Positions 17,868-49,476 are shown, counted from the stretch's first letter. The stretch is DNA of 64,000 nt from an uncultured Clostridia bacterium (GCA_947581895.1 CANPWE010000003.1:3005-67004), one strand, 5' to 3'. The notes: a model not told the origin generated them from the sequence alone. Translations and numbers: made by a program.

Positions 17868-19337
17868 TTACGCAGCTCCTTTCAATACTTTTTGTTCCCA
17901 ATTCGTTAAAAACTTTAATTGTTCCTCATTCGGATCTCGATTACATTTTATTCTGCTTTGAACTACTCTATTGTTCTTTACCTCTACTGTTACCAACGAT
18001 TTTTTAGGTTTATCAATAGTTCTCATAAAATATATATCACACTTACCTTTTGCATACCTTTCAGCATAAGTTCTTACACAATTATTTTGTTGTTTGCTTT
18101 CATTTTGCAAAGCTTTTAAAGAACATGCAGGCATAATAACAAACATTTTGTCCTGATACTTATAATTAGATAACTCTTTGCCTCTTTTCTTAATACCATC
18201 TTGTATAATTTTCTCACTTTGTATCTCATATTGAGCTTCTAATTTATCATGTTCCTCTCGTAAGTTTTTAGGAAATGCATATCTATTATTTTTTAAATCC
18301 AAACCAAGAGCTTTTGCAAATCCTAAATAATCTCTATACATATATTTATCTACTCTTCCATGATGCATTTTGGCATATTTATAAAAACGATTTAATCCAA
18401 TATATCCTGCAATTTCTTCTAAAATACCAGTATCTTCACCATATCCAACAAACTTTTGTAAATATTTTATTTTAGACATATTTTTTTCTTGTAAAAGTCT
18501 TAATATCTTTAGTTGTACGTATGTTATATTATGATTTTTCATAAAAGGATAAAAATCTTTTGAAACTCCAAATATATCTTTGAAAGAACCTTTATTTCTG
18601 AATTCCTTTTCTCTTAATGCCAAGTTGTATAACTTCATTTTAGCAAGAAGTTCAATTCGATTAATTTGATAATCTGATTTATTACCTATTAAATCAGACA
18701 AATCTATATATGAGCAATGTTTTGTTATATCCCATAAACATGAATATTTATATTGTGTATTCTTTAATACTTGTTTTAAATTATTTGGAAACACAATTGA
18801 GTAATCAATTAAAGAATAATTTCTCATATATTGCCTCCATTTCTTATCATTAATATACCAACCATTTCCATGATAAATATAAATATGACGTTGAGTTCTT
18901 GAAACTCTACCATTTACATACACATTTTGATAATAGCTGTTTCTTGTTGGAATTTCTCTACCAAATTCTGCTACTGAATAACTATGTTTATGTGTTGGAC
19001 CAATAGTAGATTTTAATTCAAAATATCTAATAACAAATGTATCATTTATATAATCTAAAATTGATAAATAATCCTTAAATTCATACCATCTTAAATTACT
19101 TCTTTTTACTAAATACTTATTATGGCAATTCGGACATTTTGCTTCTTCTCCTACTTTTTTCTTGCTAATAAAATCGTGATTACAGTTAGTACAATGACAT
19201 TTATTCTTACTTGATCTAATTATTAAATTTTGATATTCTGCTTGTTTTTCCACAAATTTATCCCAGCCCTTTGGCATACTATCATTTGAATCTAGTTCTT
19301 CAAATATTTTTCTATAAGCTACTCTTACATATCCCAT
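17868..19337 (-). CDS. PcfJ-like protein (conjugative-element associated)
   Basis: The C-terminal block QNNCVRTYAERYAKGKCDIYFMR...LVTVEV matches the PcfJ domain. N-terminal Cys pairs CHCTNCNH...CPNC. Confidence 0.65.
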   Translation of the reverse strand: MGYVRVAYRKIFEELDSNDSMPKGWDKFVEKQAEYQNLIIRSSKNKCHCTNCNHDFISKKKVGEEAKCPNCHNKYLVKRSNLRWYEFKDYLSILDYINDTFVIRYFELKSTIGPTHKHSYSVAEFGREIPTRNSYYQNVYVNGRVSRTQRHIYIYHGNGWYINDKKWRQYMRNYSLIDYSIVFPNNLKQVLKNTQYKYSCLWDITKHCSYIDLSDLIGNKSDYQINRIELLAKMKLYNLALREKEFRNKGSFKDIFGVSKDFYPFMKNHNITYVQLKILRLLQEKNMSKIKYLQKFVGYGEDTGILEEIAGYIGLNRFYKYAKMHHGRVDKYMYRDYLGFAKALGLDLKNNRYAFPKNLREEHDKLEAQYEIQSEKIIQDGIKKRGKELSNYKYQDKMFVIMPACSLKALQNESKQQNNCVRTYAERYAKGKCDIYFMRTIDKPKKSLVTVEVKNNRVVQSRIKCNRDPNEEQLKFLTNWEQKVLKGAA

Positions 19338-19714
19338 CAGCTTTGCACCTCCTGAAACAGATTCAATTGCTCATCTTGTTTTTCCTCAACAACTTTTTCT
19401 TCTGTCTTTTTAATTGTTTCAGTAGGTTTAGGTGGCATAACTTTTTTCTCTATTAATCCTAATTCTTCATTACTTTTACTAAAATAAGAAACAGCCCATA
19501 AATAAACAACATTATCCATAATCATTGCTACATTATTTTTTTGTTGTTTTCTTGCTTTGTCACATATAAATTTGTACATTTGCTTTATAGACTTTTCCTC
19601 ATTATTAAACTTTTCATATAAATCTGTTCTTGTTTTTAAATATTCAAAAACCGCTGAAATACTTGGATTATTCATATCAGCTACTTCCATTTCTAATTTT
19701 TCAATTCCTTCCAT
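19337..19714 (-). CDS. hypothetical protein
   Basis: 125-aa ORF in the co-directional operon-like array. ggaggctag RBS. Confidence 0.45.
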   Translation of the reverse strand: MEGIEKLEMEVADMNNPSISAVFEYLKTRTDLYEKFNNEEKSIKQMYKFICDKARKQQKNNVAMIMDNVVYLWAVSYFSKSNEELGLIEKKVMPPKPTETIKKTEEKVVEEKQDEQLNLFQEVQS

Positions 19715-20411: not shown

Positions 20412-20819
20412 TTATGTTTCAATTATTTCAAATTGCTTTACTGTTATTTTGATATTATCAGTATCTGTATCCATTTCATAAGCATAAAACTCTGCAATAT
20501 CTGCTATTACATTATAAATATCTTCTATTGTGCATTCTTCTTTAACATCATGTTTTTGATTGAAAAGTATTCTATCTGGATAATTTCTTAAACTGACTTT
20601 TAATTGCATTTTTACCCTTGCCTGATTATTATAATGTTTGCCATCTATAAATAGATTTTTGGTACATTCTCGTTTGATTTCGCCTGTACTTTTAATACTG
20701 CTATCTATTTTTTCTATGAAGTTATCTATTAGATGATTAAGAGTTATGCTTGAACCTTGCATAACTCCATCTGTATAATGCCAATAGAAATCACATTTAC
20801 TTGTTCCTTTTAATTTCAT
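20412..20819 (-). CDS. hypothetical protein
   Basis: 135-aa ORF. aggaggatttgc RBS. Occupies the position where rpsR would follow ssb in a chromosomal rpsF-ssb-rpsR operon, but is not S18-like. Confidence 0.5.
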   Translation of the reverse strand: MKLKGTSKCDFYWHYTDGVMQGSSITLNHLIDNFIEKIDSSIKSTGEIKRECTKNLFIDGKHYNNQARVKMQLKVSLRNYPDRILFNQKHDVKEECTIEDIYNVIADIAEFYAYEMDTDTDNIKITVKQFEIIET

Positions 20820-20840: not shown

Positions 20841-21260
20841 TTAAAATGGCAAATCATCTGACTCCAATGTGCTTTCTGTATTAGTTGTAACTACTCCTGT
20901 TGAACCTCCAAACACATTAGGTGCTACATTGTTATCTTTTTTATTACTATCTGCAAAATCTATTTCTTCAGCAATTATTTCTGTTGCATATCGTTTTTGA
21001 CCATTTGCATCGTCCCATACTCTCGTTTGTATTCTACCAGTAAGACAAATTTGCATTCCTTTGTCTAAATATTTTTCCACAAACTCTGCAAGTTTTGCAT
21101 AAGCAATAATATTGATAAAATCAGCTTGTCTTTCTTCTCCTTCTTTAACATACTTCCTATTTACAGCTAGAGTAAAACTAGCCACCTTTGTGTTATTTGC
21201 TTGTGATAACCTAATTTCTGGTTTCTTTGTTAATCTTCCTAATAATATTGATTTATTCAT
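20841..21260 (-). CDS. ssb: single-stranded DNA-binding protein
   Basis: OB-fold N-terminus MNKSILLGRLTKKPEIR...FTLAVNR and the acidic tail ending DDLPF. Start taken at the internal Met (MNKS), not the ORF-track Met. Confidence 0.85.
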   Translation of the reverse strand: MNKSILLGRLTKKPEIRLSQANNTKVASFTLAVNRKYVKEGEERQADFINIIAYAKLAEFVEKYLDKGMQICLTGRIQTRVWDDANGQKRYATEIIAEEIDFADSNKKDNNVAPNVFGGSTGVVTTNTESTLESDDLPF

Positions 21261-21276
21261 AATTTTTTCTTCCTTT

Positions 21277-21561
21277 CTATTTATCAACCTTTATAGTCAT
21301 ATATTTAATAACCTCATCTGTAATTCTATATTGCCTTTCTAATTCACTTACGCAATCTACGTTTGAATTAAAATTAATTACATAGTAATAAGCTTCATTT
21401 TCTTTTTTTACTTCATAGGCCAACTTTCTTTTTCCAAATTCTTCAATTTTATTAATTGTTCCATTTTCATTTAACAACTTTACAAATTTCTCAAAAGCAT
21501 TCTTTCTTGCCTCATCATCAACCTTTCCACTTAAAATCATTATTGTTTCATAATTATTCAT
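21277..21561 (-). CDS. rpsF: ribosomal protein bS6 homolog
   Basis: MNNYETIMILSGKVDDE...FGKRKLAYEV...YYYVINF...ELERQYRITDEVIKY aligns along its full length with bacterial S6 (compare B. subtilis MRKYEVMYIIRPNIDEE...WGKRRLAYEI...). Confidence 0.75.
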   Translation of the reverse strand: MNNYETIMILSGKVDDEARKNAFEKFVKLLNENGTINKIEEFGKRKLAYEVKKENEAYYYVINFNSNVDCVSELERQYRITDEVIKYMTIKVDK

Positions 21562-29554: not shown

Positions 29555-29667
29555 AAATGTTACAGAACTACACTTCTGTTACTTTTTATAGAGATTTCAT
29601 TCATAATATGGCAAAAAAATGTTACAGAAATGATAAAAATAGATATAATTAAATGTTACAGAAATGA
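29555..29667 (+). repeat. three direct copies of aaatgttacagaa upstream of the recombinase gene
   Basis: Copies at 29555, 29617 and 29651. The first lies within an imperfect palindrome, atgttacagaactacacttctgttac. Confidence 0.5.
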
Positions 29668-29681
29668 AAGGGGTGTTTTTA

Positions 29682-30554
29682 ATGCATGAAAATTTTGAAA
29701 ATTATATGAAAGAAAATGGACTTTCCGATAACACTTGTGAATGTTATTCACGAGATTTAAAATTATTCGAAAAATATTACTTTGATTCATATGGAGAAGA
29801 TTTAACTCAACTTATACATTCGGATATAATTGAATATAGAAACTATTTAAATAAACACGGTATATCTCCAAAAACTATAAATAAGAAAATTGCAGCACTA
29901 AAACAATACAATTTATTTTTGGTAAAGGAAAACATTCAAAATGATATTGTAATAATAGATAAAGATTATATAAAAATTCAAAATTCTATAATTCCTAAAA
30001 AATTACCAACCAATTTAGAGATAAATCGTATTAAACACTTTGCTTGTAAAGATGATAAAAACCCAAAACGTGATATGTGTATTGTTTCAATTTTTACTTA
30101 TGGAGGACTAAGAGTTAGCGAATTAATTAATATAAAGATAACAGATATTAAATTAGAACAACGATTTATTAACATTATTGGAAAAGGAAACAAATTTAGA
30201 CAAATAATAATTAACGATGTAATGTATGAGGCTATAAAGGATTATCTTCAAGAAAGAGCAGATATGAATATTATCAATCCTTACCTTATTATAGGTCAAA
30301 AGAATAAAAATAATAATTTGCCCGTAAGTAGAAAATTTTGTAATGATCTTCTTGATAAATACAGTGGAATGATTAAATCTGTAAAATTACATCCTCATCT
30401 TTTGAGGTCATTTTTCTGCACAAATGCGTTACACAACGCTGGTTACAGTATAGAGCAAGTAGCAAATCAAGCTGGTCATTGTAGTTTGAATACCACTAAA
30501 ATGTATTTAGTTAGTGAACAAGAAGATTTACTTACTTTAGCAAATAAAATGTAA
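29682..30554 (+). CDS. tyrosine recombinase (XerC/XerD-like integrase)
   Basis: N-terminal core-binding (SAM-like) domain. C-terminal HPHLLRSFFCTNALHNAGYSIEQVANQAGHCSLNTTKMYL (H..R...Y). Start moved to MHENF, which has an aaagggg RBS. The ORF track started at 29664. Confidence 0.8.
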   Translation: MHENFENYMKENGLSDNTCECYSRDLKLFEKYYFDSYGEDLTQLIHSDIIEYRNYLNKHGISPKTINKKIAALKQYNLFLVKENIQNDIVIIDKDYIKIQNSIIPKKLPTNLEINRIKHFACKDDKNPKRDMCIVSIFTYGGLRVSELINIKITDIKLEQRFINIIGKGNKFRQIIINDVMYEAIKDYLQERADMNIINPYLIIGQKNKNNNLPVSRKFCNDLLDKYSGMIKSVKLHPHLLRSFFCTNALHNAGYSIEQVANQAGHCSLNTTKMYLVSEQEDLLTLANKM

Positions 30555-38708: not shown

Positions 38709-39866
38709 TTATTTTCTGCTTAATTGTACTTCAATAGTTTTTTCCCTATTATTTCTTAATACTGTTAAAATTACCGTATCTCCAATATTTTTTGAATATA
38801 TATATTCACGTAAATCGCACATCTTTTCTAAAGAAATATCATCAATTTTTGTTATAACATCTCCAATTTGTAATCCACTTGTAAATGCAGGAGAATCTAA
38901 TGATATTTGTGCAATATATATCCCTGTATCAAAATTTATATTTGAATCTAAATATGGTATTACATCTTTATCATATGCAAAAACTCCAATACTAGCTTCT
39001 TCAAAATTTCCTTCATTTTCTAACTTTTGTATTATAGGCTTAATTACATTTATTGGAACAGCAAATCCTATCCCTTCTGCAGATGTAATTTTTACAGTAT
39101 TTATACCAATAATTTCACCATTATTATTAATTAAAGGTCCTCCACTATTTCCTGGATTTATTGTAGCATCAGTTTGAATTAAATTAGACATAAAAACTTC
39201 ATGTTCATTTTCTTCATTATTTACACCATTTTCTGTTTGTGTATTTTCTTTAAAAATAATAGTTCTATTTAATGCACTTATAATTCCAGATGTAACAGTT
39301 TTTTGAAATTCAAATCCAATTGGATTTCCTATGGCATATGCACTTTCTCCTACACTTACTAAATCTGAATCTCCTAGTATTGCATAACTAACACATTTCA
39401 TATTAATTTTGATAATAGCTAAATCTAAATTCATATCTGACCATACAACATTTGCATTATAATTTTTTCCATCTTCCATTGTTACATAACAAGTACTATT
39501 CTTTGGTCCAGAAACATGTTCATTTGTTAAAATATATCCATTTTCTGATATAATTACTCCACTCCCAATTCCCATTTGTGATACACCATTTTCCATAAAA
39601 ATAGTACTTCCATTATCTTTTAATTTGGAAACTCCAACAACACAATTTGTAACATTCTCTAACATTTGGGTAATAGTTACATCCTCTTGTTTTTTCATGT
39701 CTACTGTTTGTGATAAACGTTCTGCTTTAACAGTAGTAAAATCTGTTATTGGAATTCCTCTATAAATTTGAAATAATTTTATTCCTACCAAAATTGCCAG
39801 AATAATAATTACACATATAATTAATATCTTTTCTATTCTTTTTTTTCTTTGAGAATAAATATACAC
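38709..39866 (-). CDS. htrA: HtrA/DegP-family serine protease with PDZ domain
   Basis: N-terminal TM anchor. Catalytic triad context ILTNEHV, D...LAII, TDATINPGNSGGPL. C-terminal PDZ. Confidence 0.85.
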   Translation of the reverse strand: MYIYSQRKKRIEKILIICVIIILAILVGIKLFQIYRGIPITDFTTVKAERLSQTVDMKKQEDVTITQMLENVTNCVVGVSKLKDNGSTIFMENGVSQMGIGSGVIISENGYILTNEHVSGPKNSTCYVTMEDGKNYNANVVWSDMNLDLAIIKINMKCVSYAILGDSDLVSVGESAYAIGNPIGFEFQKTVTSGIISALNRTIIFKENTQTENGVNNEENEHEVFMSNLIQTDATINPGNSGGPLINNNGEIIGINTVKITSAEGIGFAVPINVIKPIIQKLENEGNFEEASIGVFAYDKDVIPYLDSNINFDTGIYIAQISLDSPAFTSGLQIGDVITKIDDISLEKMCDLREYIYSKNIGDTVILTVLRNNREKTIEVQLSRK

Positions 39867-40124
39867 AATTAATACTCCTCCTTTAATTATTCTTTATTAC
39901 ATTTTTTACAAAATTGTAAAAATTATACTCATCTAATAACAATTGGATATCTTACAGTTTTGTACTCCCTCTTACCTTCTTCTCCAAAACTTGAACTCCA
40001 TCAAACGAATGAAATATCAATGTGTGTTACTGCATTACATAACTATTAAATTTGATGGCTTATTGCAAAAACATTAAACAGTAACCAGCTAATGTTACTG
40101 TTTAACATTTTCGTCTTTTGAGTA

Positions 40125-40377
40125 GCCGGAAAGTGGTAGTAAGAGTGGAGATGTGGATATATATTGTTTTAAAAATGTGGCTTAAGTGGGAACCGGCTAG
40201 CTACAGAGAGTTATAATTCCCCAGACTACCACACCCCCAAAAACGTATACACAGTCCCTCACTGCCATACAGCAATCCGACCCTCACGCTCAGGAATTAT
40301 TACTCTCTGTGCGCTGTTGGGAAACATTTTTAAAACAATATATATCCACATCTCCACTCTTACTACCACTTTCCGGC
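40125..40377. repeat. 54-bp perfect inverted repeat flanking a 145-bp relatively GC-rich core that itself contains an 18-bp imperfect inner inverted repeat
   Basis: 40125-40178 gccggaaagtggtagtaagagtggagatgtggatatatattgttttaaaaatgt is the exact reverse complement of 40324-40377. Inner arms acagagagttataattcc (40203-40220) and ggaattattactctctgt (40291-40308). Confidence 0.8.
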
Positions 40378-40487
40378 GGACTATTGTAAAAAGGCATTAA
40401 ACGCTAATATAAAAAATTCTGTTTTAGTATTGTAGAAAATAATTTTTAATGATATAATTTTACCAAATTTGTAATGGAGGGAGTAAT

Positions 40488-41507
40488 ATGAAATTAGAAC
40501 AAAATGATGTACCTTTTATATTTTCATCAACATCATTACCAGATGTTTTTTTTACAGAATATTTATCATATGCTGATGGTAATTATATAAAAATATATCT
40601 ATACATGGTTTTTTTGGCAAAATATGGAAAAGACATAAAAATAAATGACTTAGCAAAAAAATTACAACTTCCATTAAAAACAATTCAGGATGGAATAAAA
40701 TTTTGGGAAGAACAAAAAGTTATCACTAAAAAAAATGCAGGATACATATTAAATAACTTACAAGAAATGGAATTACATAAGCTTTATAATCCTAGAGTTA
40801 CTTCATCACCTGAAGAATTAGAAAAAACGGCTAAAAATCAATATCGTTCTAAAGCTATAGAAAATATAAATAATGAATTTTTTCAAGGCATTATGTCTCC
40901 TTCATGGTATAGTGATATAGATTTATGGTTTAAAAAATATGCTTTTGATGAAGAAGTAATGATAGCACTATTTAGATATTGCTTTAATCGTTCTGCACTT
41001 CACAGAAATTATATCCAAACAGTAGCTGAAGCCTGGTCACAAAATAATATAAAAACATTTAATGACTTAGAAATATATTTTGAAAAACAAGAAAAAATAA
41101 AATCTTTAGAATCTGTAATTTCTAAAAAATTAAATCTAAATAGACAACTATCACAATATGAAGAAGGCTATGTCTCAAGATGGAATTTGGAGTATGGATA
41201 TAATTTTGATATTATCGAACTTGCTTTGAAAAAAACCACTTCAAAATCAAATTTTAACTTTGACTATTTAGATAGAATATTAACAGATTGGCATGAAAGG
41301 AAATTAAAAACACCTGCTGATGTAACTAATTATTTATTAGATACAAAAAACAAAAATAAAAATATTAAGAATTTGGAAAAACAAACAGGTTATACAAATT
41401 ATGAACAAAGAGAACATTCAGATTGGGATAATTTTTATATTAATACTACAAATAATTCAAATAATAATATAGATTCTAATATTAATCAAAATAATATTAA
41501 ACTATAA
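40488..41507 (+). CDS. dnaD: DnaD/DnaB-domain replication initiation/primosome protein
   Basis: DnaD-like N-domain and DnaB_2-like C-repeat (W...YI...A..W...I.T....Y). GGAGGGAG RBS. Followed by dnaI, as in Firmicute dnaB-dnaI operons. Confidence 0.7.
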   Translation: MKLEQNDVPFIFSSTSLPDVFFTEYLSYADGNYIKIYLYMVFLAKYGKDIKINDLAKKLQLPLKTIQDGIKFWEEQKVITKKNAGYILNNLQEMELHKLYNPRVTSSPEELEKTAKNQYRSKAIENINNEFFQGIMSPSWYSDIDLWFKKYAFDEEVMIALFRYCFNRSALHRNYIQTVAEAWSQNNIKTFNDLEIYFEKQEKIKSLESVISKKLNLNRQLSQYEEGYVSRWNLEYGYNFDIIELALKKTTSKSNFNFDYLDRILTDWHERKLKTPADVTNYLLDTKNKNKNIKNLEKQTGYTNYEQREHSDWDNFYINTTNNSNNNIDSNINQNNIKL

Positions 41508-45159: not shown

Positions 45160-45350
45160 ATTTCTACCTCTTTTCTAGTGTATTTCACTCCTTGTATTAT
45201 ACTAAATCAAAAAAAATTATGCAACAATAAAATTTAAATTTCCGTAATTTTTGTTACTGTTTAATACTTTTTTTAAAAAATTTTTATTTAATTAAACAGT
45301 TTCATATAAAAGTATTATAAAATAATTATTTTATTTATTTATTTTAATAA

Positions 45351-45520
45351 AATATACTACATCTTAAAGTCACTCTATAAAAGAAAAAATTTTTGAAAAA
45401 AAGTGGTTAAGAAATTTTATGATTTTATAAATTAATAAGATTATGATATAGAAACAATTAAATTAATTGAATTGAAATTATATATTTTATAGAGTAACTT
45501 TAAGATGTAGTATATTTTTT
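45351..45520. repeat. 32-bp inverted repeat (1 mismatch) separated by ~105 bp in the gyrA upstream region
   Basis: aaaatatactacatcttaaagtcactctataaaa (45351-45384) against ttttatagagtaactttaagatgtagtatatttt (45487-45520). Confidence 0.7.
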
Positions 45521-45523
45521 ATT

Positions 45524-46243
45524 TTATAAATTTTCAGCAAGTTCTAAATAAATATTACTAAAGTCAAAATTTTCCGTATTATTAATTAATTCATGTATAT
45601 TTTGAATTTTATTTACATTTTTAATAATATTTTCTAATGGTAATATTTTTTTCATTTGTTTTTCTATTTTATTATATTCTTTGGTTAATCCATCTAAATC
45701 TTTTTTCGTATAATATTTTTCCCAATTTCCTATGTATTTTTCTACTTTTTCTAATGCTTTTATTTCATTAGTAAATTCATTTTCGACATTGTTACTAATA
45801 TTATTTAAAATTAAATCTTTACCATTTTTTATTAAAGATGATATATTATCTGGAATTATTTTTGAATTTGATAATTTATCTAATACATTATCAATTCCAT
45901 CTGAAACTTTATCAATAAATTTTCCTTTTTCTACAGCATTTTCTGCCTGTTCTATACTAGTAAACTCTGCATCTTCTATTCCTAATATTTTTTTCCCAAG
46001 TTCTATTGCATTTTGTCCTGCTGCATTTATAGCTTCTTTAAATCCTCCACTAATTAATGCATCTTTTACTTCAATAATCTCATCTTCAATAAAATCTGGT
46101 AAAATAACTTTTAAACCTGCATCTATTGCATTATTAGCAATTTGTCCAAAATTTGAATTCAAAAATTTATCTTGGAGATTTTTTAAATCCAAACTTTCTA
46201 TTAATCTATTGCCTAATTCATTAATATTTTCTAATATATCCAT
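45524..46243 (-). CDS. hypothetical alpha-helical protein (last gene of the inserted cluster)
   Basis: 239 aa, acidic, no family recognised. aggaggttagc RBS. Confidence 0.5.
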   Translation of the reverse strand: MDILENINELGNRLIESLDLKNLQDKFLNSNFGQIANNAIDAGLKVILPDFIEDEIIEVKDALISGGFKEAINAAGQNAIELGKKILGIEDAEFTSIEQAENAVEKGKFIDKVSDGIDNVLDKLSNSKIIPDNISSLIKNGKDLILNNISNNVENEFTNEIKALEKVEKYIGNWEKYYTKKDLDGLTKEYNKIEKQMKKILPLENIIKNVNKIQNIHELINNTENFDFSNIYLELAENL

Positions 46244-46279
46244 GCTAACCTCCTTATATTTTTCATAATAATATAATTA

Positions 46280-47680
46280 CTAATAAATTTTTTTCCAAAC
46301 AAATTCATATTTTTTTAACATGTTATTTTTTTCATTAATATTTTTTACATTTTCATTAATTATCATATTGTAATCATTTTTCAATCTAATATATCCTAAT
46401 ATATTATAATCAGAATACAAGTTTTTTAATAAATTAATATCTATACTCTTTATATTAAATTTATTAAAAACAATATTTATTTTACTTTTTTCTATATTCC
46501 AATTTGTATAATACATTTCTAAAAGTCTTTTACTTTTACTTACCTCTAATAAATTTGCTTCTGTTAAAAATATGCTTTGATTACTCATTTTTATTATTTC
46601 TTTAGTATATTCAAAAAAGCATTCTGATGTTGTATCTATAATTATTACATCATAATATTCTAATAATTTTTCCATTATCTTTTTTAATTTTTCTTCACTA
46701 ATTTTATTATCAGAATCAAATATCAAATTAATTCCAGAAATTAAATCCATTTTTTTATTAATATTAATTATTAAATTTTCAATTTTTATTTCATCCTTTT
46801 TATAATTATTATTTTTCATTATTTTTTTTATTTCTTCTGAATATTTATTTACTCCAAGAATTGTATGCAAACTGTTATTTAAAATATCAAAATCTATAAT
46901 TAATATTTTTTCGCAATATTTTTTTAGAGCTTTTGCTAACATTACTGAAAAGACACTTTTACCTGATCCATTGTTTCCTAAAATGGAAATTATTTTATTT
47001 TTTTTAGTATCTTCATCTATAATTTTATTAATAAAATTTTTTTGATTTATATTATTTATAATTTTATTATTAAAATTAATTTTATTTCCAATATTTATTT
47101 TTTTATTACTCATTATTCTTTTTAATGAATTAATTTTATTATTTTTAGAAATTATAATTTTATTATTTTTTTCTTTATTTTTCTTTTTACATTTTCTTAT
47201 TTCATTATTTGATAAATTTTTCTCATTTATTTTATTATTATTTTTTATAAATTCTTTTAATTCATCTATTTCTTTTCTTATTTCTTCATTATATTTCTCC
47301 ATTTTATTTTCTTCACTGATTATTTCAATTATTTCCTTAATTTCTATTTTATTATCAAAAAAGATTTTATATACGCCTTTTTTCATCAAATTTTCTTCTA
47401 ATTTATCATTATTTTTTTCCAATATTAAAATTATTTTTATTTTAGGATTAATTTTTTTAATTTTTTCTACTAATTCTTCTAATTCTAAATTTCCTGGAAT
47501 TAATTGACTTATAATAATAAAATCTATTTCTTTTTTTAATTCTAAAATTTCAAAAATTCCATCTTGATATTGTATGTCATTATTTATTATTGTTAATCCA
47601 TTTATTTTTTTTATTTCATCATTTAATATAGGATTTCCAACTGCTGTTAATATATTTTTAATTTTTTTCACCTCCCACAA
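46280..47680 (-). CDS. CpaE/TadZ-like ATPase: N-terminal receiver-like domain + MinD/ParA-type P-loop
   Basis: The N-terminal ~120 aa resemble a REC fold (IIISQLIPGNLELEELVEKIKKINPKIKIILIL). ILGNNGSGKSVFSVMLAKAL deviant Walker A near residue 225. Start overlaps the upstream gene by 23 nt. Confidence 0.6.
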   Translation of the reverse strand: MWEVKKIKNILTAVGNPILNDEIKKINGLTIINNDIQYQDGIFEILELKKEIDFIIISQLIPGNLELEELVEKIKKINPKIKIILILEKNNDKLEENLMKKGVYKIFFDNKIEIKEIIEIISEENKMEKYNEEIRKEIDELKEFIKNNNKINEKNLSNNEIRKCKKKNKEKNNKIIISKNNKINSLKRIMSNKKINIGNKINFNNKIINNINQKNFINKIIDEDTKKNKIISILGNNGSGKSVFSVMLAKALKKYCEKILIIDFDILNNSLHTILGVNKYSEEIKKIMKNNNYKKDEIKIENLIININKKMDLISGINLIFDSDNKISEEKLKKIMEKLLEYYDVIIIDTTSECFFEYTKEIIKMSNQSIFLTEANLLEVSKSKRLLEMYYTNWNIEKSKINIVFNKFNIKSIDINLLKNLYSDYNILGYIRLKNDYNMIINENVKNINEKNNMLKKYEFVWKKIY

Positions 47681-49433
47681 TTATTTCTTTTTCAAAATCT
47701 GATACTTCAATTTTAACTAATAAATGATCATCTCCAGCAAACATGAGACTTTCACCTCTTTTTAATGATTTTATTTCAATTTTTTCTTTTTCTGAAATAT
47801 TAGAATATTTTTCTAAGACATTAATATTTTCTTCTTCCATTGAAAAAAAATTTTTTATACTTGAATTATTTAAAATACTTTTTCCATATGTACCATTTTC
47901 TAAACTAAATAAATCTGAAATATCCTGTGTAATTGCAACTGCACTTCCTCCATATTTCCTTATAGTTTTAAAAATTTTATAAATAAATGAAGCAACTTCC
48001 TTGTTTGATGTTACACCAATTAATCTCCATATTTCGTCTAAATAAATTGATTTTTTTGTATTTCTATCTTTTTTTATTTTGTCCCAAAACAATTCAGTAA
48101 ATAAATACATACCATATTTTAAATTTTCTTCTCCTAATTCATATACATCTGCTAAAATTAATTTATTATTTAATTCAATATTTGTATAATTATTAAAAAA
48201 TTTTAATGAGCCTTTTATAAATGGTAATAATTTTATTTTAAATTTTTTTGTTTCTTCATCACATAAAATATTATAAAAATCTTCTAAAATAGGCATATCT
48301 TTGCTTGCTTTAAAAATGGGTTTTATATTTATTTTTTCATTATCATATTTATATAATGATTTATCATCAAAAGTTATATTTTTTATTTTATAAACTTCAA
48401 TTATTTTTTCTTCTAATATTGCCTTTTCCTCTTCATTTAAATTTCCAAAAATCAAATTAAAAAATCCAATTAATTTTGCAATCTTAGTAGCCAAATATCC
48501 ATTTTCAGTATCTTCTAAACTATCTTGTCTTATATCAAAAATATTTATATATGTTCCAGAATTAGGGCCAATTTTTAATATAGTTCCCTCTAATTTTTCA
48601 CACATATTTAAATATTCTCTCTCAGGATCAATAATATATTGTTCAATTCCTAATAGTCTATATCTTAATATTAACAATTTAGTATAAAAAGATTTTCCAG
48701 CACCACTTGTTCCAAAAATAGACATATTTGCATTTTTATATTTTTCATTATCATATCTATCAATGAAAACTAAAGAATTATTATAAATATTTGTACCAAT
48801 TAAAATTCCGTTTTCATCAAAAATTGATGATGAAATAAATGGATAAGTACCAACTAAACCATTTGTTAAAATATTTCTTCTTGCAATTTCTTTTATATCC
48901 TTGGAATTTTCCATAAATGGGAAACTAGAAATTAATCCTTTTTCTTGTCTAAAGTATGCTCTTTTTGTTTGAATATTTTTACTTTGTAATAGTCCTTCTA
49001 CTTTATTTAAAACATATTCTAAATCTTTTTTATCTTTTGAAAAAACATTTATATAAATATATAAAAAATATAAATCCTCATTATTTACCTGTATTTCTTT
49101 TCTTATATATTTTGCATCATTATATGTAAAAGCTGCAATTTCTATATCTTGTCTATTTTCTCCCAATGTCTTCAAATCAGAACCTACATTTCCTATATGA
49201 TATGTTAGGTCTTTAATTGTTTTATATTTATCTTGTTTTTCATAATAAATTGAGATATTTATATTAATATTTGTATCAATTATATTTCTTAATAATAGAT
49301 CAAAATTTTCTCTTCCATAATCTGAAACAATTAATGTCGAATAATAAATTCCATCCATTTCCATATATTTTGGATTAGATAAATTTATATATGAAGGTGA
49401 TAAAAAATCCTTATCTGAATATACACCTTTCAT
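47658..49433 (-). CDS. VirB4/TraC-like ATPase module (separate ORF from its N-domain)
   Basis: Walker A FGTSGAGKSFYTKLL, IIDPEREY, Walker B IYLDEIWRLIG, ...AVAITQD. The N-terminal YMEMDGIYYSTLIVSDYGRE matches the VirB4 central region. Confidence 0.7.
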   Translation of the reverse strand: MKGVYSDKDFLSPSYINLSNPKYMEMDGIYYSTLIVSDYGRENFDLLLRNIIDTNININISIYYEKQDKYKTIKDLTYHIGNVGSDLKTLGENRQDIEIAAFTYNDAKYIRKEIQVNNEDLYFLYIYINVFSKDKKDLEYVLNKVEGLLQSKNIQTKRAYFRQEKGLISSFPFMENSKDIKEIARRNILTNGLVGTYPFISSSIFDENGILIGTNIYNNSLVFIDRYDNEKYKNANMSIFGTSGAGKSFYTKLLILRYRLLGIEQYIIDPEREYLNMCEKLEGTILKIGPNSGTYINIFDIRQDSLEDTENGYLATKIAKLIGFFNLIFGNLNEEEKAILEEKIIEVYKIKNITFDDKSLYKYDNEKINIKPIFKASKDMPILEDFYNILCDEETKKFKIKLLPFIKGSLKFFNNYTNIELNNKLILADVYELGEENLKYGMYLFTELFWDKIKKDRNTKKSIYLDEIWRLIGVTSNKEVASFIYKIFKTIRKYGGSAVAITQDISDLFSLENGTYGKSILNNSSIKNFFSMEEENINVLEKYSNISEKEKIEIKSLKRGESLMFAGDDHLLVKIEVSDFEKEIIVGGEKN

Positions 49434-49476
49434 AAAATTTAAATCATTTTTGATTTTTTTTATTAAAAATCACCTC

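Follow-up and report, generated by a model that had tools for sequence, protein, structure and literature searches.

What is the long inverted repeat that lies between the genes for an HtrA-type serine protease and a DnaD-domain protein in an uncultured lineage of Clostridia from the gut or rumen? The repeat spans 40125–40377 of the 64-kb (64,000-nt) stretch of DNA that we analyzed, which we will call the window. It is intergenic and lies between divergent genes: htrA is at 38709–39866 on the minus strand and dnaD is at 40488–41507 on the plus strand, followed by a gene for a DnaI/DnaC-like loader and then by gyrA. The element is real in the given sequence, and it is statistically and compositionally extreme for this genome. 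Provisionally, we consider it to be a long inverted-repeat or foldback cassette, and it may be an inverton. More specifically, the explanation that we tentatively put first is a young, lineage-specific, DNA-level foldback cassette with inverted repeats, which has a strongly strand-asymmetric core and can flip; this is possible, but we would not call it probable. We infer all three of its functional parts: the inversion, the involvement of a recombinase, and the effect on transcription.

All of the sequence-level statements in the initial annotation of this locus hold. A repeat search found outer arms at 40125–40178 and 40324–40377 that are 54 nt long, 100% complementary, and 145 nt apart, which are the values that had been given. 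As read from the sequence, the complementarity ends sharply on the inner and outer sides alike, so the claim that this is a discrete element stands as well. When we searched the 64-kb window with a 32-nt arm probe, allowing up to 3 mismatches, the only matches were the two arms themselves, and none of 100 shuffled sequences had a match. The plus strand of the left arm contains 17 G and 2 C; we rejected the C-free character of this arm as an anomaly, as C-free runs of 40 nt or more occur 39 times in the window. Between the arms is a 145-nt spacer (40179–40323), which is the candidate invertible segment. Within the spacer, the repeat search identified an inner inverted repeat, ACAGAGAGTTATAATTCC at 40203–40220 and GGAATTATTACTCTCTGT at 40293–40310, whose 18-nt arms are 94% complementary (one mismatch) and 72 nt apart. 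This is the imperfect 18-bp repeat that had been described, and its left arm does contain TATAAT (40212–40217); because of the mismatch, the right inner arm has AATAAT on the minus strand instead. Non-complementary gaps of 24 and 13 nt separate the inner repeat from the outer one. Finally, the 72 nt between the inner arms (40221–40292) are the core, which on the plus strand is C-rich, G-poor, and unstructured, with a rut-like composition.

No other 150-nt stretch of the window is as GC-rich as the spacer, whose 50% GC compares to a mean of 25.9% (standard deviation 5.2%) and exceeds that of both of the window's tRNA genes. This bears out the impression that the core looks foreign. The core itself has 32 C, 23 A, 10 T, and 7 G, or 54% GC, which is close to the ~55% GC that was claimed for it amid ~25% GC DNA. 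The core region also has the strongest C-over-G skew in the window on either strand, with 34 C versus 7 G in 78 nt. The motif CCCTCAC (GTGAGGG on the other strand) occurs twice in the core, at 40256–40262 and at 40281–40287, 25 nt apart. The core also has CCCC and CCCCC runs, and the G-rich strand has four G-tracts of at least 3 nt in about 70 nt.

The element as a whole is predicted to fold strongly, whether as plus-strand RNA (−134.5 kcal/mol, z = −14.8), as minus-strand RNA (−138.5 kcal/mol, z = −11.3), or as single-stranded DNA (−75.2 kcal/mol, z = −14.3). The RNA of the core alone folds at −3.8 kcal/mol (z = −0.75) for the plus strand and −16.8 kcal/mol (z = −0.9) for the minus strand. 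Neither of these is significant, so RNA folding does not explain why the core is GC-rich. As far as composition goes, the plus-strand core has what is expected of a rut site, which is about 70–80 nt of C-rich, G-poor, unstructured RNA. Judging from the sequence, then, the core could be a rut site whose action depends on its orientation.

We compared the locus to its relatives. In all four of the related lineages that we sampled, whose DnaD proteins are 86–90% identical and which come from rumen and gut metagenomes, the gene order DAO-Rieske, htrA, dnaD, dnaI, gyrA is kept. The region between htrA and dnaD is 137–243 bp in these relatives versus 621 bp here. Homology to the relatives stops near 39937, just past the conserved promoter region of htrA, and resumes near 40393–40404, before the dnaD promoter. 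In other words, the element sits in a lineage-specific insertion within a conserved syntenic intergenic region. The insert is non-coding and about 455 nt long (39938–40392, with boundaries that are good to about 10 nt), and it is missing from every relative that keeps this gene order. In order, its parts are a unique stretch of 130 nt, a hairpin that looks like a terminator (40068–40119), the 253-bp repeat unit, and a last 15 nt. The loci of the relatives contain no comparable long inverted repeat. The initial annotation had named a single-copy element that is identical in all relatives as the case against a mobile or invertible element. There is indeed just one copy in the window, but the relatives lack the insert.

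We propose that the insert carries a cassette, placed between the htrA promoter and the dnaD-dnaI promoter, in which a 145-bp payload of foreign composition is held between identical 54-bp arms. The arms would recombine with each other, via a recombinase that is encoded elsewhere or via RecA alone; RecA alone could serve because 54 bp of perfect identity is enough. The exchange would flip the payload, and the same exchange, or gene conversion, would keep the arms identical. In one orientation, a transcript across the payload would contain 72 nt of unstructured, C-rich, G-poor RNA that resembles a Rho-loading (rut) site in composition, whereas RNA from the other strand would be G-rich. Given this strand asymmetry, a flip would change what happens to any transcript across the element.

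Several observations are consistent with this proposal. The geometry is that of an inverton, with inverted repeats around a short (145 nt) intergenic segment, here with perfect, sharp-edged arms between divergent genes. The payload's composition and skew are the most extreme in the window, and none of the relatives that share the gene order has the insert. Also, the size and layout resemble those of a 154-bp flagellar switch whose OFF state is Rho-dependent (PMC7446863). The perfect and sharp-edged arms argue for a cause at the level of DNA, which would be either recent formation or continuing homogenization by recombination between the arms. The initial annotation had reasoned in the same way from perfect arms to a DNA-level element; this is reasonable, but it is not a proof, as a very recent origin also yields perfect arms.

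Independent assemblies bear on whether the element flips. Four ENA samples contain contigs that are 100% identical to the window, at about 2.5–3.8x k-mer coverage, and the contigs from two of these samples approach the element. Both of the assemblies that break there are SPAdes-style, with about 3x k-mer coverage. On the dnaD side, the contig from ERZ27249221 starts at 40324, which is the first base of the right arm and hence its exact inner edge, and the contig from ERZ27059539 starts at 40328. On the htrA side, contigs end at 40105 and 40061, short of the left arm. The right arm is therefore seen joined to dnaD, at 100% identity, in two other samples. No independent contig crosses the element, so that only the window's own assembly contains the left arm and the spacer. 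Exact look-ups of DnaD, HtrA, DnaI, P0069, and four small ORFs inside the insert did not yield a contig that spans the element, and the DnaD cluster had no further member from the same species.

The 54-nt arms share no 55-mer in a k=55 graph, so the start at 40324 suggests that there were two continuations at the arm's inner edge. This is the expected branch point if both orientations are present. The two continuations could reflect a real inversion, or they could reflect chimeric reads that were induced by the repeat. More broadly, the contig breaks fit two orientations and the loss of hairpin fragments during sequencing equally well, and hairpin loss or chimeric reads are just as much expected to break contigs. 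Furthermore, if the graph simply branched between two orientations, then the htrA-side contigs should end at 40178, whereas they end at 40105 and 40061. In favor of inversion, another long inverted repeat, which is imperfect, was assembled unbroken in one of the same low-coverage samples (contig L023). This second repeat, at 45349–45518 between gyrA and the next gene, is AT-rich and has 44-nt arms that are 91% complementary, with an 82-nt spacer.

We rejected one other contig (L030, which is NODE_8430 of ENA ERZ27249206) as uninformative, as it is fused to unrelated sequence inside dnaD. Its first 99 nt (L030:1–99) are unrelated AT-rich sequence, joined to the interior of dnaD at window position 40697, and its dnaD is called as a truncated 246-aa protein. 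Either this contig, which has low coverage, is chimeric, or the junction is a structural variant.

If the element flips, which recombinase might act on it? The window does encode two tyrosine recombinases, at 29664–30554 and at 1385–2758. However, we found no recombinase gene within about 9 kb of the element, and both of these genes are in conjugative-element contexts. The protein encoded at 29664–30554 is Xer-like, but it is below the cut-offs for XerC and XerD, and its matches to invertase subfamilies are weak. The model for integron integrases also matches this protein, which is encoded 10 kb off from the element, weakly and below the threshold. The protein encoded at 1385–2758 is an integrase.

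The window contains much other mobile DNA. A mobile block at 1385–36643 includes the integrase, a Mob_Pre relaxase, RepA_N, two tRNAs, AbiEii, PcfJ, VirB4/TraG-like ATPases, PrgI, a T4SS pilin, an MMCAP2_0566-like conjugal protein, and the Xer-like recombinase. Another mobile block, at 45524–51300, contains ParA/CpaE-like and TraG-P-loop genes and parts gyrA from gyrB. We also noticed clusters of perfect DnaA boxes (TTATCCACA) at 55696–56017 and 57524–57609, which flank dnaA (56138–57478). They mark a bipartite oriC, which places the window at the origin of replication; oriC and dnaA are 16 kb from the element.

The promoters around the element are harder to reconcile with an invertible switch, which the initial annotation had also listed as a candidate. 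Both htrA and dnaD retain their own conserved promoters outside of the element; the conserved promoter of dnaD is TTGTAG-17-TGATATAAT at 40430–40458. Because the neighbors' promoters lie outside of the element, there is no obvious transcript for it to regulate. Inside the element, pairs of promoter-like hexamers are weak, reaching at most 8–9 of 12 consensus positions in either orientation, and inverting the segment in silico merely shifts these weak sites to the opposite direction. Also, the element is not conserved in other lineages, which would have argued for selection. We consider it quite improbable that the element is a phase-variable switch of a new design, which RecA or a trans-acting recombinase would flip, and which would present a rut-like or a G-rich face, instead of a promoter, to transcripts that cross the region between htrA and dnaD-dnaI. 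If this were true, then a stochastic DNA switch would be coupled to the expression of replication-initiation or envelope-stress genes near oriC.

A different explanation arises from the terminator-like hairpin with T-runs at 40068–40119, which we describe on the minus strand. It resembles a bidirectional intrinsic terminator, and 13 nt separate its stem-loop (40068–40111) from the left arm. A scan called it as a plus-strand terminator. However, the hairpin is far better as minus-strand RNA, with 20 contiguous pairs (2 of them G-U) and −21.9 kcal/mol (z = −6.1), versus −14.0 kcal/mol (z = −3.3) as plus-strand RNA, in which C-A and A-C mismatches replace the G-U pairs. A terminator between divergent genes implies that some unannotated transcription unit lies within the htrA-dnaD intergenic region, and the only thing upstream of this terminator on the minus strand is the repeat element. 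We considered that the element might be an orphan small-RNA gene on the minus strand, with TACAAT at 40388–40383 as its −10 hexamer, a start at about 40377, and termination at 40111–40062. The RNA would be about 315 nt long, and RNase III would act on its 54-bp duplex and release the GC-rich payload. A GC-rich island in an AT-rich genome is a classic signature of an RNA gene, and this island, in a 26% GC genome, is above the window's own tRNA genes. Also, the TACAAT (40383–40388, minus strand), as read from the sequence, precedes the hairpin by 5 nt and so is positioned for a start at the base of the stem.

Nevertheless, a small RNA seems unlikely. Selection on RNA structure would not yield a 54-bp stem without a single mismatch or G-U pair, and the core of the payload, which would be the released product, is not significantly structured on either strand. 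The TACAAT is a weak −10-like hexamer that lacks a good −35 or an extended −10, and promoter scans were silent there. Rfam has no match over 40125–40377, either at gathering thresholds (across the whole window, where the only matches at that level are the two tRNAs) or at E ≤ 10 (across 39000–41500). Nor did we find homologs in which covariation could be sought. ARAGORN did not identify any remnant of a tRNA or tmRNA at the element. Finally, the terminator may serve another transcript. There is a near-consensus sigma-70-type promoter, TTGCCA-16-TATAAT (11/12), at 39794–39821 on the plus strand, within the 5' coding region of htrA. It is antisense to the start of htrA and is aimed at the terminator at 40068–40119, which makes for a candidate antisense RNA of about 290 nt. 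This promoter is not conserved in the relatives.

We have similar doubts about a neutral origin, in which a very recent template switch copied 54 nt in inverted orientation beside an existing insert, and the result has no function. This would account for the 100% identity of the arms, their abrupt edges, the lack of a target-site duplication, and the presence of a single copy in just one lineage. Template switching is known to homogenize or expand the arms of repeats, and even to invert spacers (PMC8604942). However, it does not explain why the spacer is so extreme in GC content and C-over-G skew, nor does it account for the nested inner repeat and the adjacent terminator. The non-complementary gaps of 24 and 13 nt imply that the arms did not form by simply extending a quasi-palindrome outward, and most of the documented events are much shorter.

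It is rather less likely that the element is a MITE-like or foldback non-autonomous transposon, or the relic of one, with 54-bp terminal repeats, that was mobilized in trans by a transposase encoded elsewhere and landed harmlessly between divergent promoters. The initial annotation had listed a MITE-like transposon as its first candidate. The perfect terminal repeats, a size of 253 bp that is within the range for MITEs, the foreign composition, the lineage-specific insertion, and the abundance of mobile DNA in the window are all as expected. But the other hallmarks are missing. The annotation had suggested looking for further copies and for target-site duplications at the ends: there is no second copy in the 64-kb window, and the left flank (...TTTTGAGTA) and the right flank (GGACTATTG...) do not form a target-site duplication. 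As read from the sequence, GAGTA borders the left arm and GGACTA borders the right arm, and the best offset match between them is 4/5. We also rejected a 10-nt direct repeat, ATTGTAAAAA at 39913–39922 and 40383–40392, as a target-site duplication, because it lies near the ends of the insert but not at its boundaries, and AT-rich DNA could well contain such a repeat by chance. The insert, at about 455 nt, is larger than the unit that is bounded by the repeats.

Nor did we find copies or a transposase for such an element. Exact probes for the arms and the core (20- to 24-mers) were absent from GTDB representative genomes and from IMG/VR, although diverged relatives would escape these probes, and the two probe matches in JGI metagenomes, of 21–33 nt, are due to chance. 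Searches of 40100–40400 and 39925–40135 with blastn against plasmids and phages had no match. Of the 56 ORFs in the window that were listed with a length of 110 aa or more, 53 were scanned with Pfam, and no DDE or other transposase turned up. The other three, at 19337–19714, 20412–20819, and 20841–21287, encode 120–148 aa; every other ORF that lies outside of a larger ORF was scanned. TRF did not find a tandem repeat at the element.

Other kinds of elements are not supported either. The initial annotation had raised the hairpin-ended IS200/IS605 type and the attC site of integrons. The elements of IS200/IS605 (such as PATEs) have short, subterminal, imperfect hairpins and no terminal inverted repeats, with TnpA (Y1) and/or TnpB encoded in the genome. 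A long terminal inverted repeat is the wrong architecture for this type, and neither Y1 TnpA nor TnpB was found by the Pfam scans of the window's ORFs. An attC site is an imperfect palindrome of 57–141 nt, with R''/L''-L'/R' boxes, a GTTRRRY core, and extrahelical bases, and it lies beside cassettes and IntI. The element, in contrast, is 253 nt long, its 54-nt arms are perfect, its ends lack GTTRRRY, and the window has no integron integrase (the Pfam scans did not find IntI) and no cassette array. A retron is a non-coding RNA with flanking a1/a2 repeats that lies directly upstream of a gene for reverse transcriptase. Here the downstream gene is dnaD, and the scans of the window's ORFs did not find a reverse transcriptase (RVT) domain, so we rejected the msr-msd of a retron as well.

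We also rejected a role for DnaA boxes: each arm has one box with a single mismatch, but the window should contain about 23 of these by chance. As for an oriT, the core shares a 9-mer, CTGCCATAC, with a GC-rich region upstream of the gene for the Mob_Pre relaxase, but 47 of 300 shuffled sequences reach the same alignment score. Similarly, ACTGTGTATAC, which we take to resemble the nick region of pMV158, does so without significance. We rejected adapters, phiX, and vectors as the source, as there was no match in the phage or plasmid collections, and the partial similarity of the element to the Tn5 mosaic end is presumably due to chance.

Lastly, it is very unlikely that the left arm and the spacer arose from a mis-join or from chimeric reads in a de Bruijn graph: although no independent assembly crosses the element, and although the arms, at one below the usual final k of SPAdes (55), are of the greatest length that a k=55 graph resolves, the arms mismatch on both sides and so share no 55-mer that could create a false junction, the path needs real 56-mers across each arm and reads at both of the arm-spacer junctions, and the junction of the right arm with dnaD is identical in two other samples.

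What would follow from these explanations? The element is an orphan, from one assembly of one uncultured lineage, which limits its general importance. If it does not flip, then it is a warning: a perfect inverted repeat of length k−1 breaks low-coverage metagenome assemblies and can pass for a regulatory element in a metagenome-assembled genome. If it does flip, then it is an inverton with unusually long and perfect arms beside an essential replication-initiation operon.

How does the element compare to known systems? The small RNAs of Firmicutes of the RsaE/RoxS type have seed regions in C-rich loops that pair with Shine-Dalgarno sequences. Similarly, the large loop of a plus-strand RNA would leave several C-runs of the core unpaired (CCCC, CCCCC, and two copies of CCCUC). 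However, the element has no Rfam match to RsaE or to any other family, and on the plus strand, where no promoter was flagged, a terminator directly precedes the element and none follows it. The size of the element and its 54-bp stalk are also unlike these small RNAs.

MITEs such as Correia/NEMIS, RUP, and bcr1 are present in multiple copies, with target-site duplications and with ends that are shared with an IS. Like them, the element is small and non-coding, has terminal inverted repeats, can form a hairpin, and is intergenic, as they often are. In the collections and the window that we searched, though, it lacks multiple copies, target-site duplications, and ends that are shared with an IS.

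Quasi-palindromes that arise by template switching also have identical arms and abrupt ends, do not duplicate their flanks, and are recent and lineage-specific (PMC8604942). The arms in documented cases are shorter, measuring some tens of nt at most, and their spacers are short, whereas here the arms are 54 nt and surround a 145-nt spacer of foreign composition.

This brings us back to the foldback cassette that may flip, and to the flagellar switch of Clostridioides difficile. The inverted repeats of that switch are about 21 bp long, and to our knowledge, 54-bp arms exceed those of characterized invertons. The flagellar switch (Cdi4) is a 154-bp segment with imperfect inverted repeats (PMC7446863), unlike the perfect arms here. 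It is one of several RecV-dependent invertible elements, and its inversion and its recombinase have been demonstrated, whereas our candidate inverton is known from its sequence. The flagellar switch is in the 5' leader of the operon that it controls; here, the neighbors' promoters lie between the genes and the element. On the other hand, both are short intergenic segments (154 bp there and 145 bp here) that are flanked by inverted repeats in a low-GC genome of the Clostridia. The orientation-dependent output of the flagellar switch was proposed to involve Rho, which would act on the RNA from one orientation (PMC7446863), and the core that we describe is C-rich and G-poor on one strand. If the element does flip, then its payload is a one-sided C-rich tract and not a promoter, and it would extend the Rho-dependent logic that was proposed for C. 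difficile.
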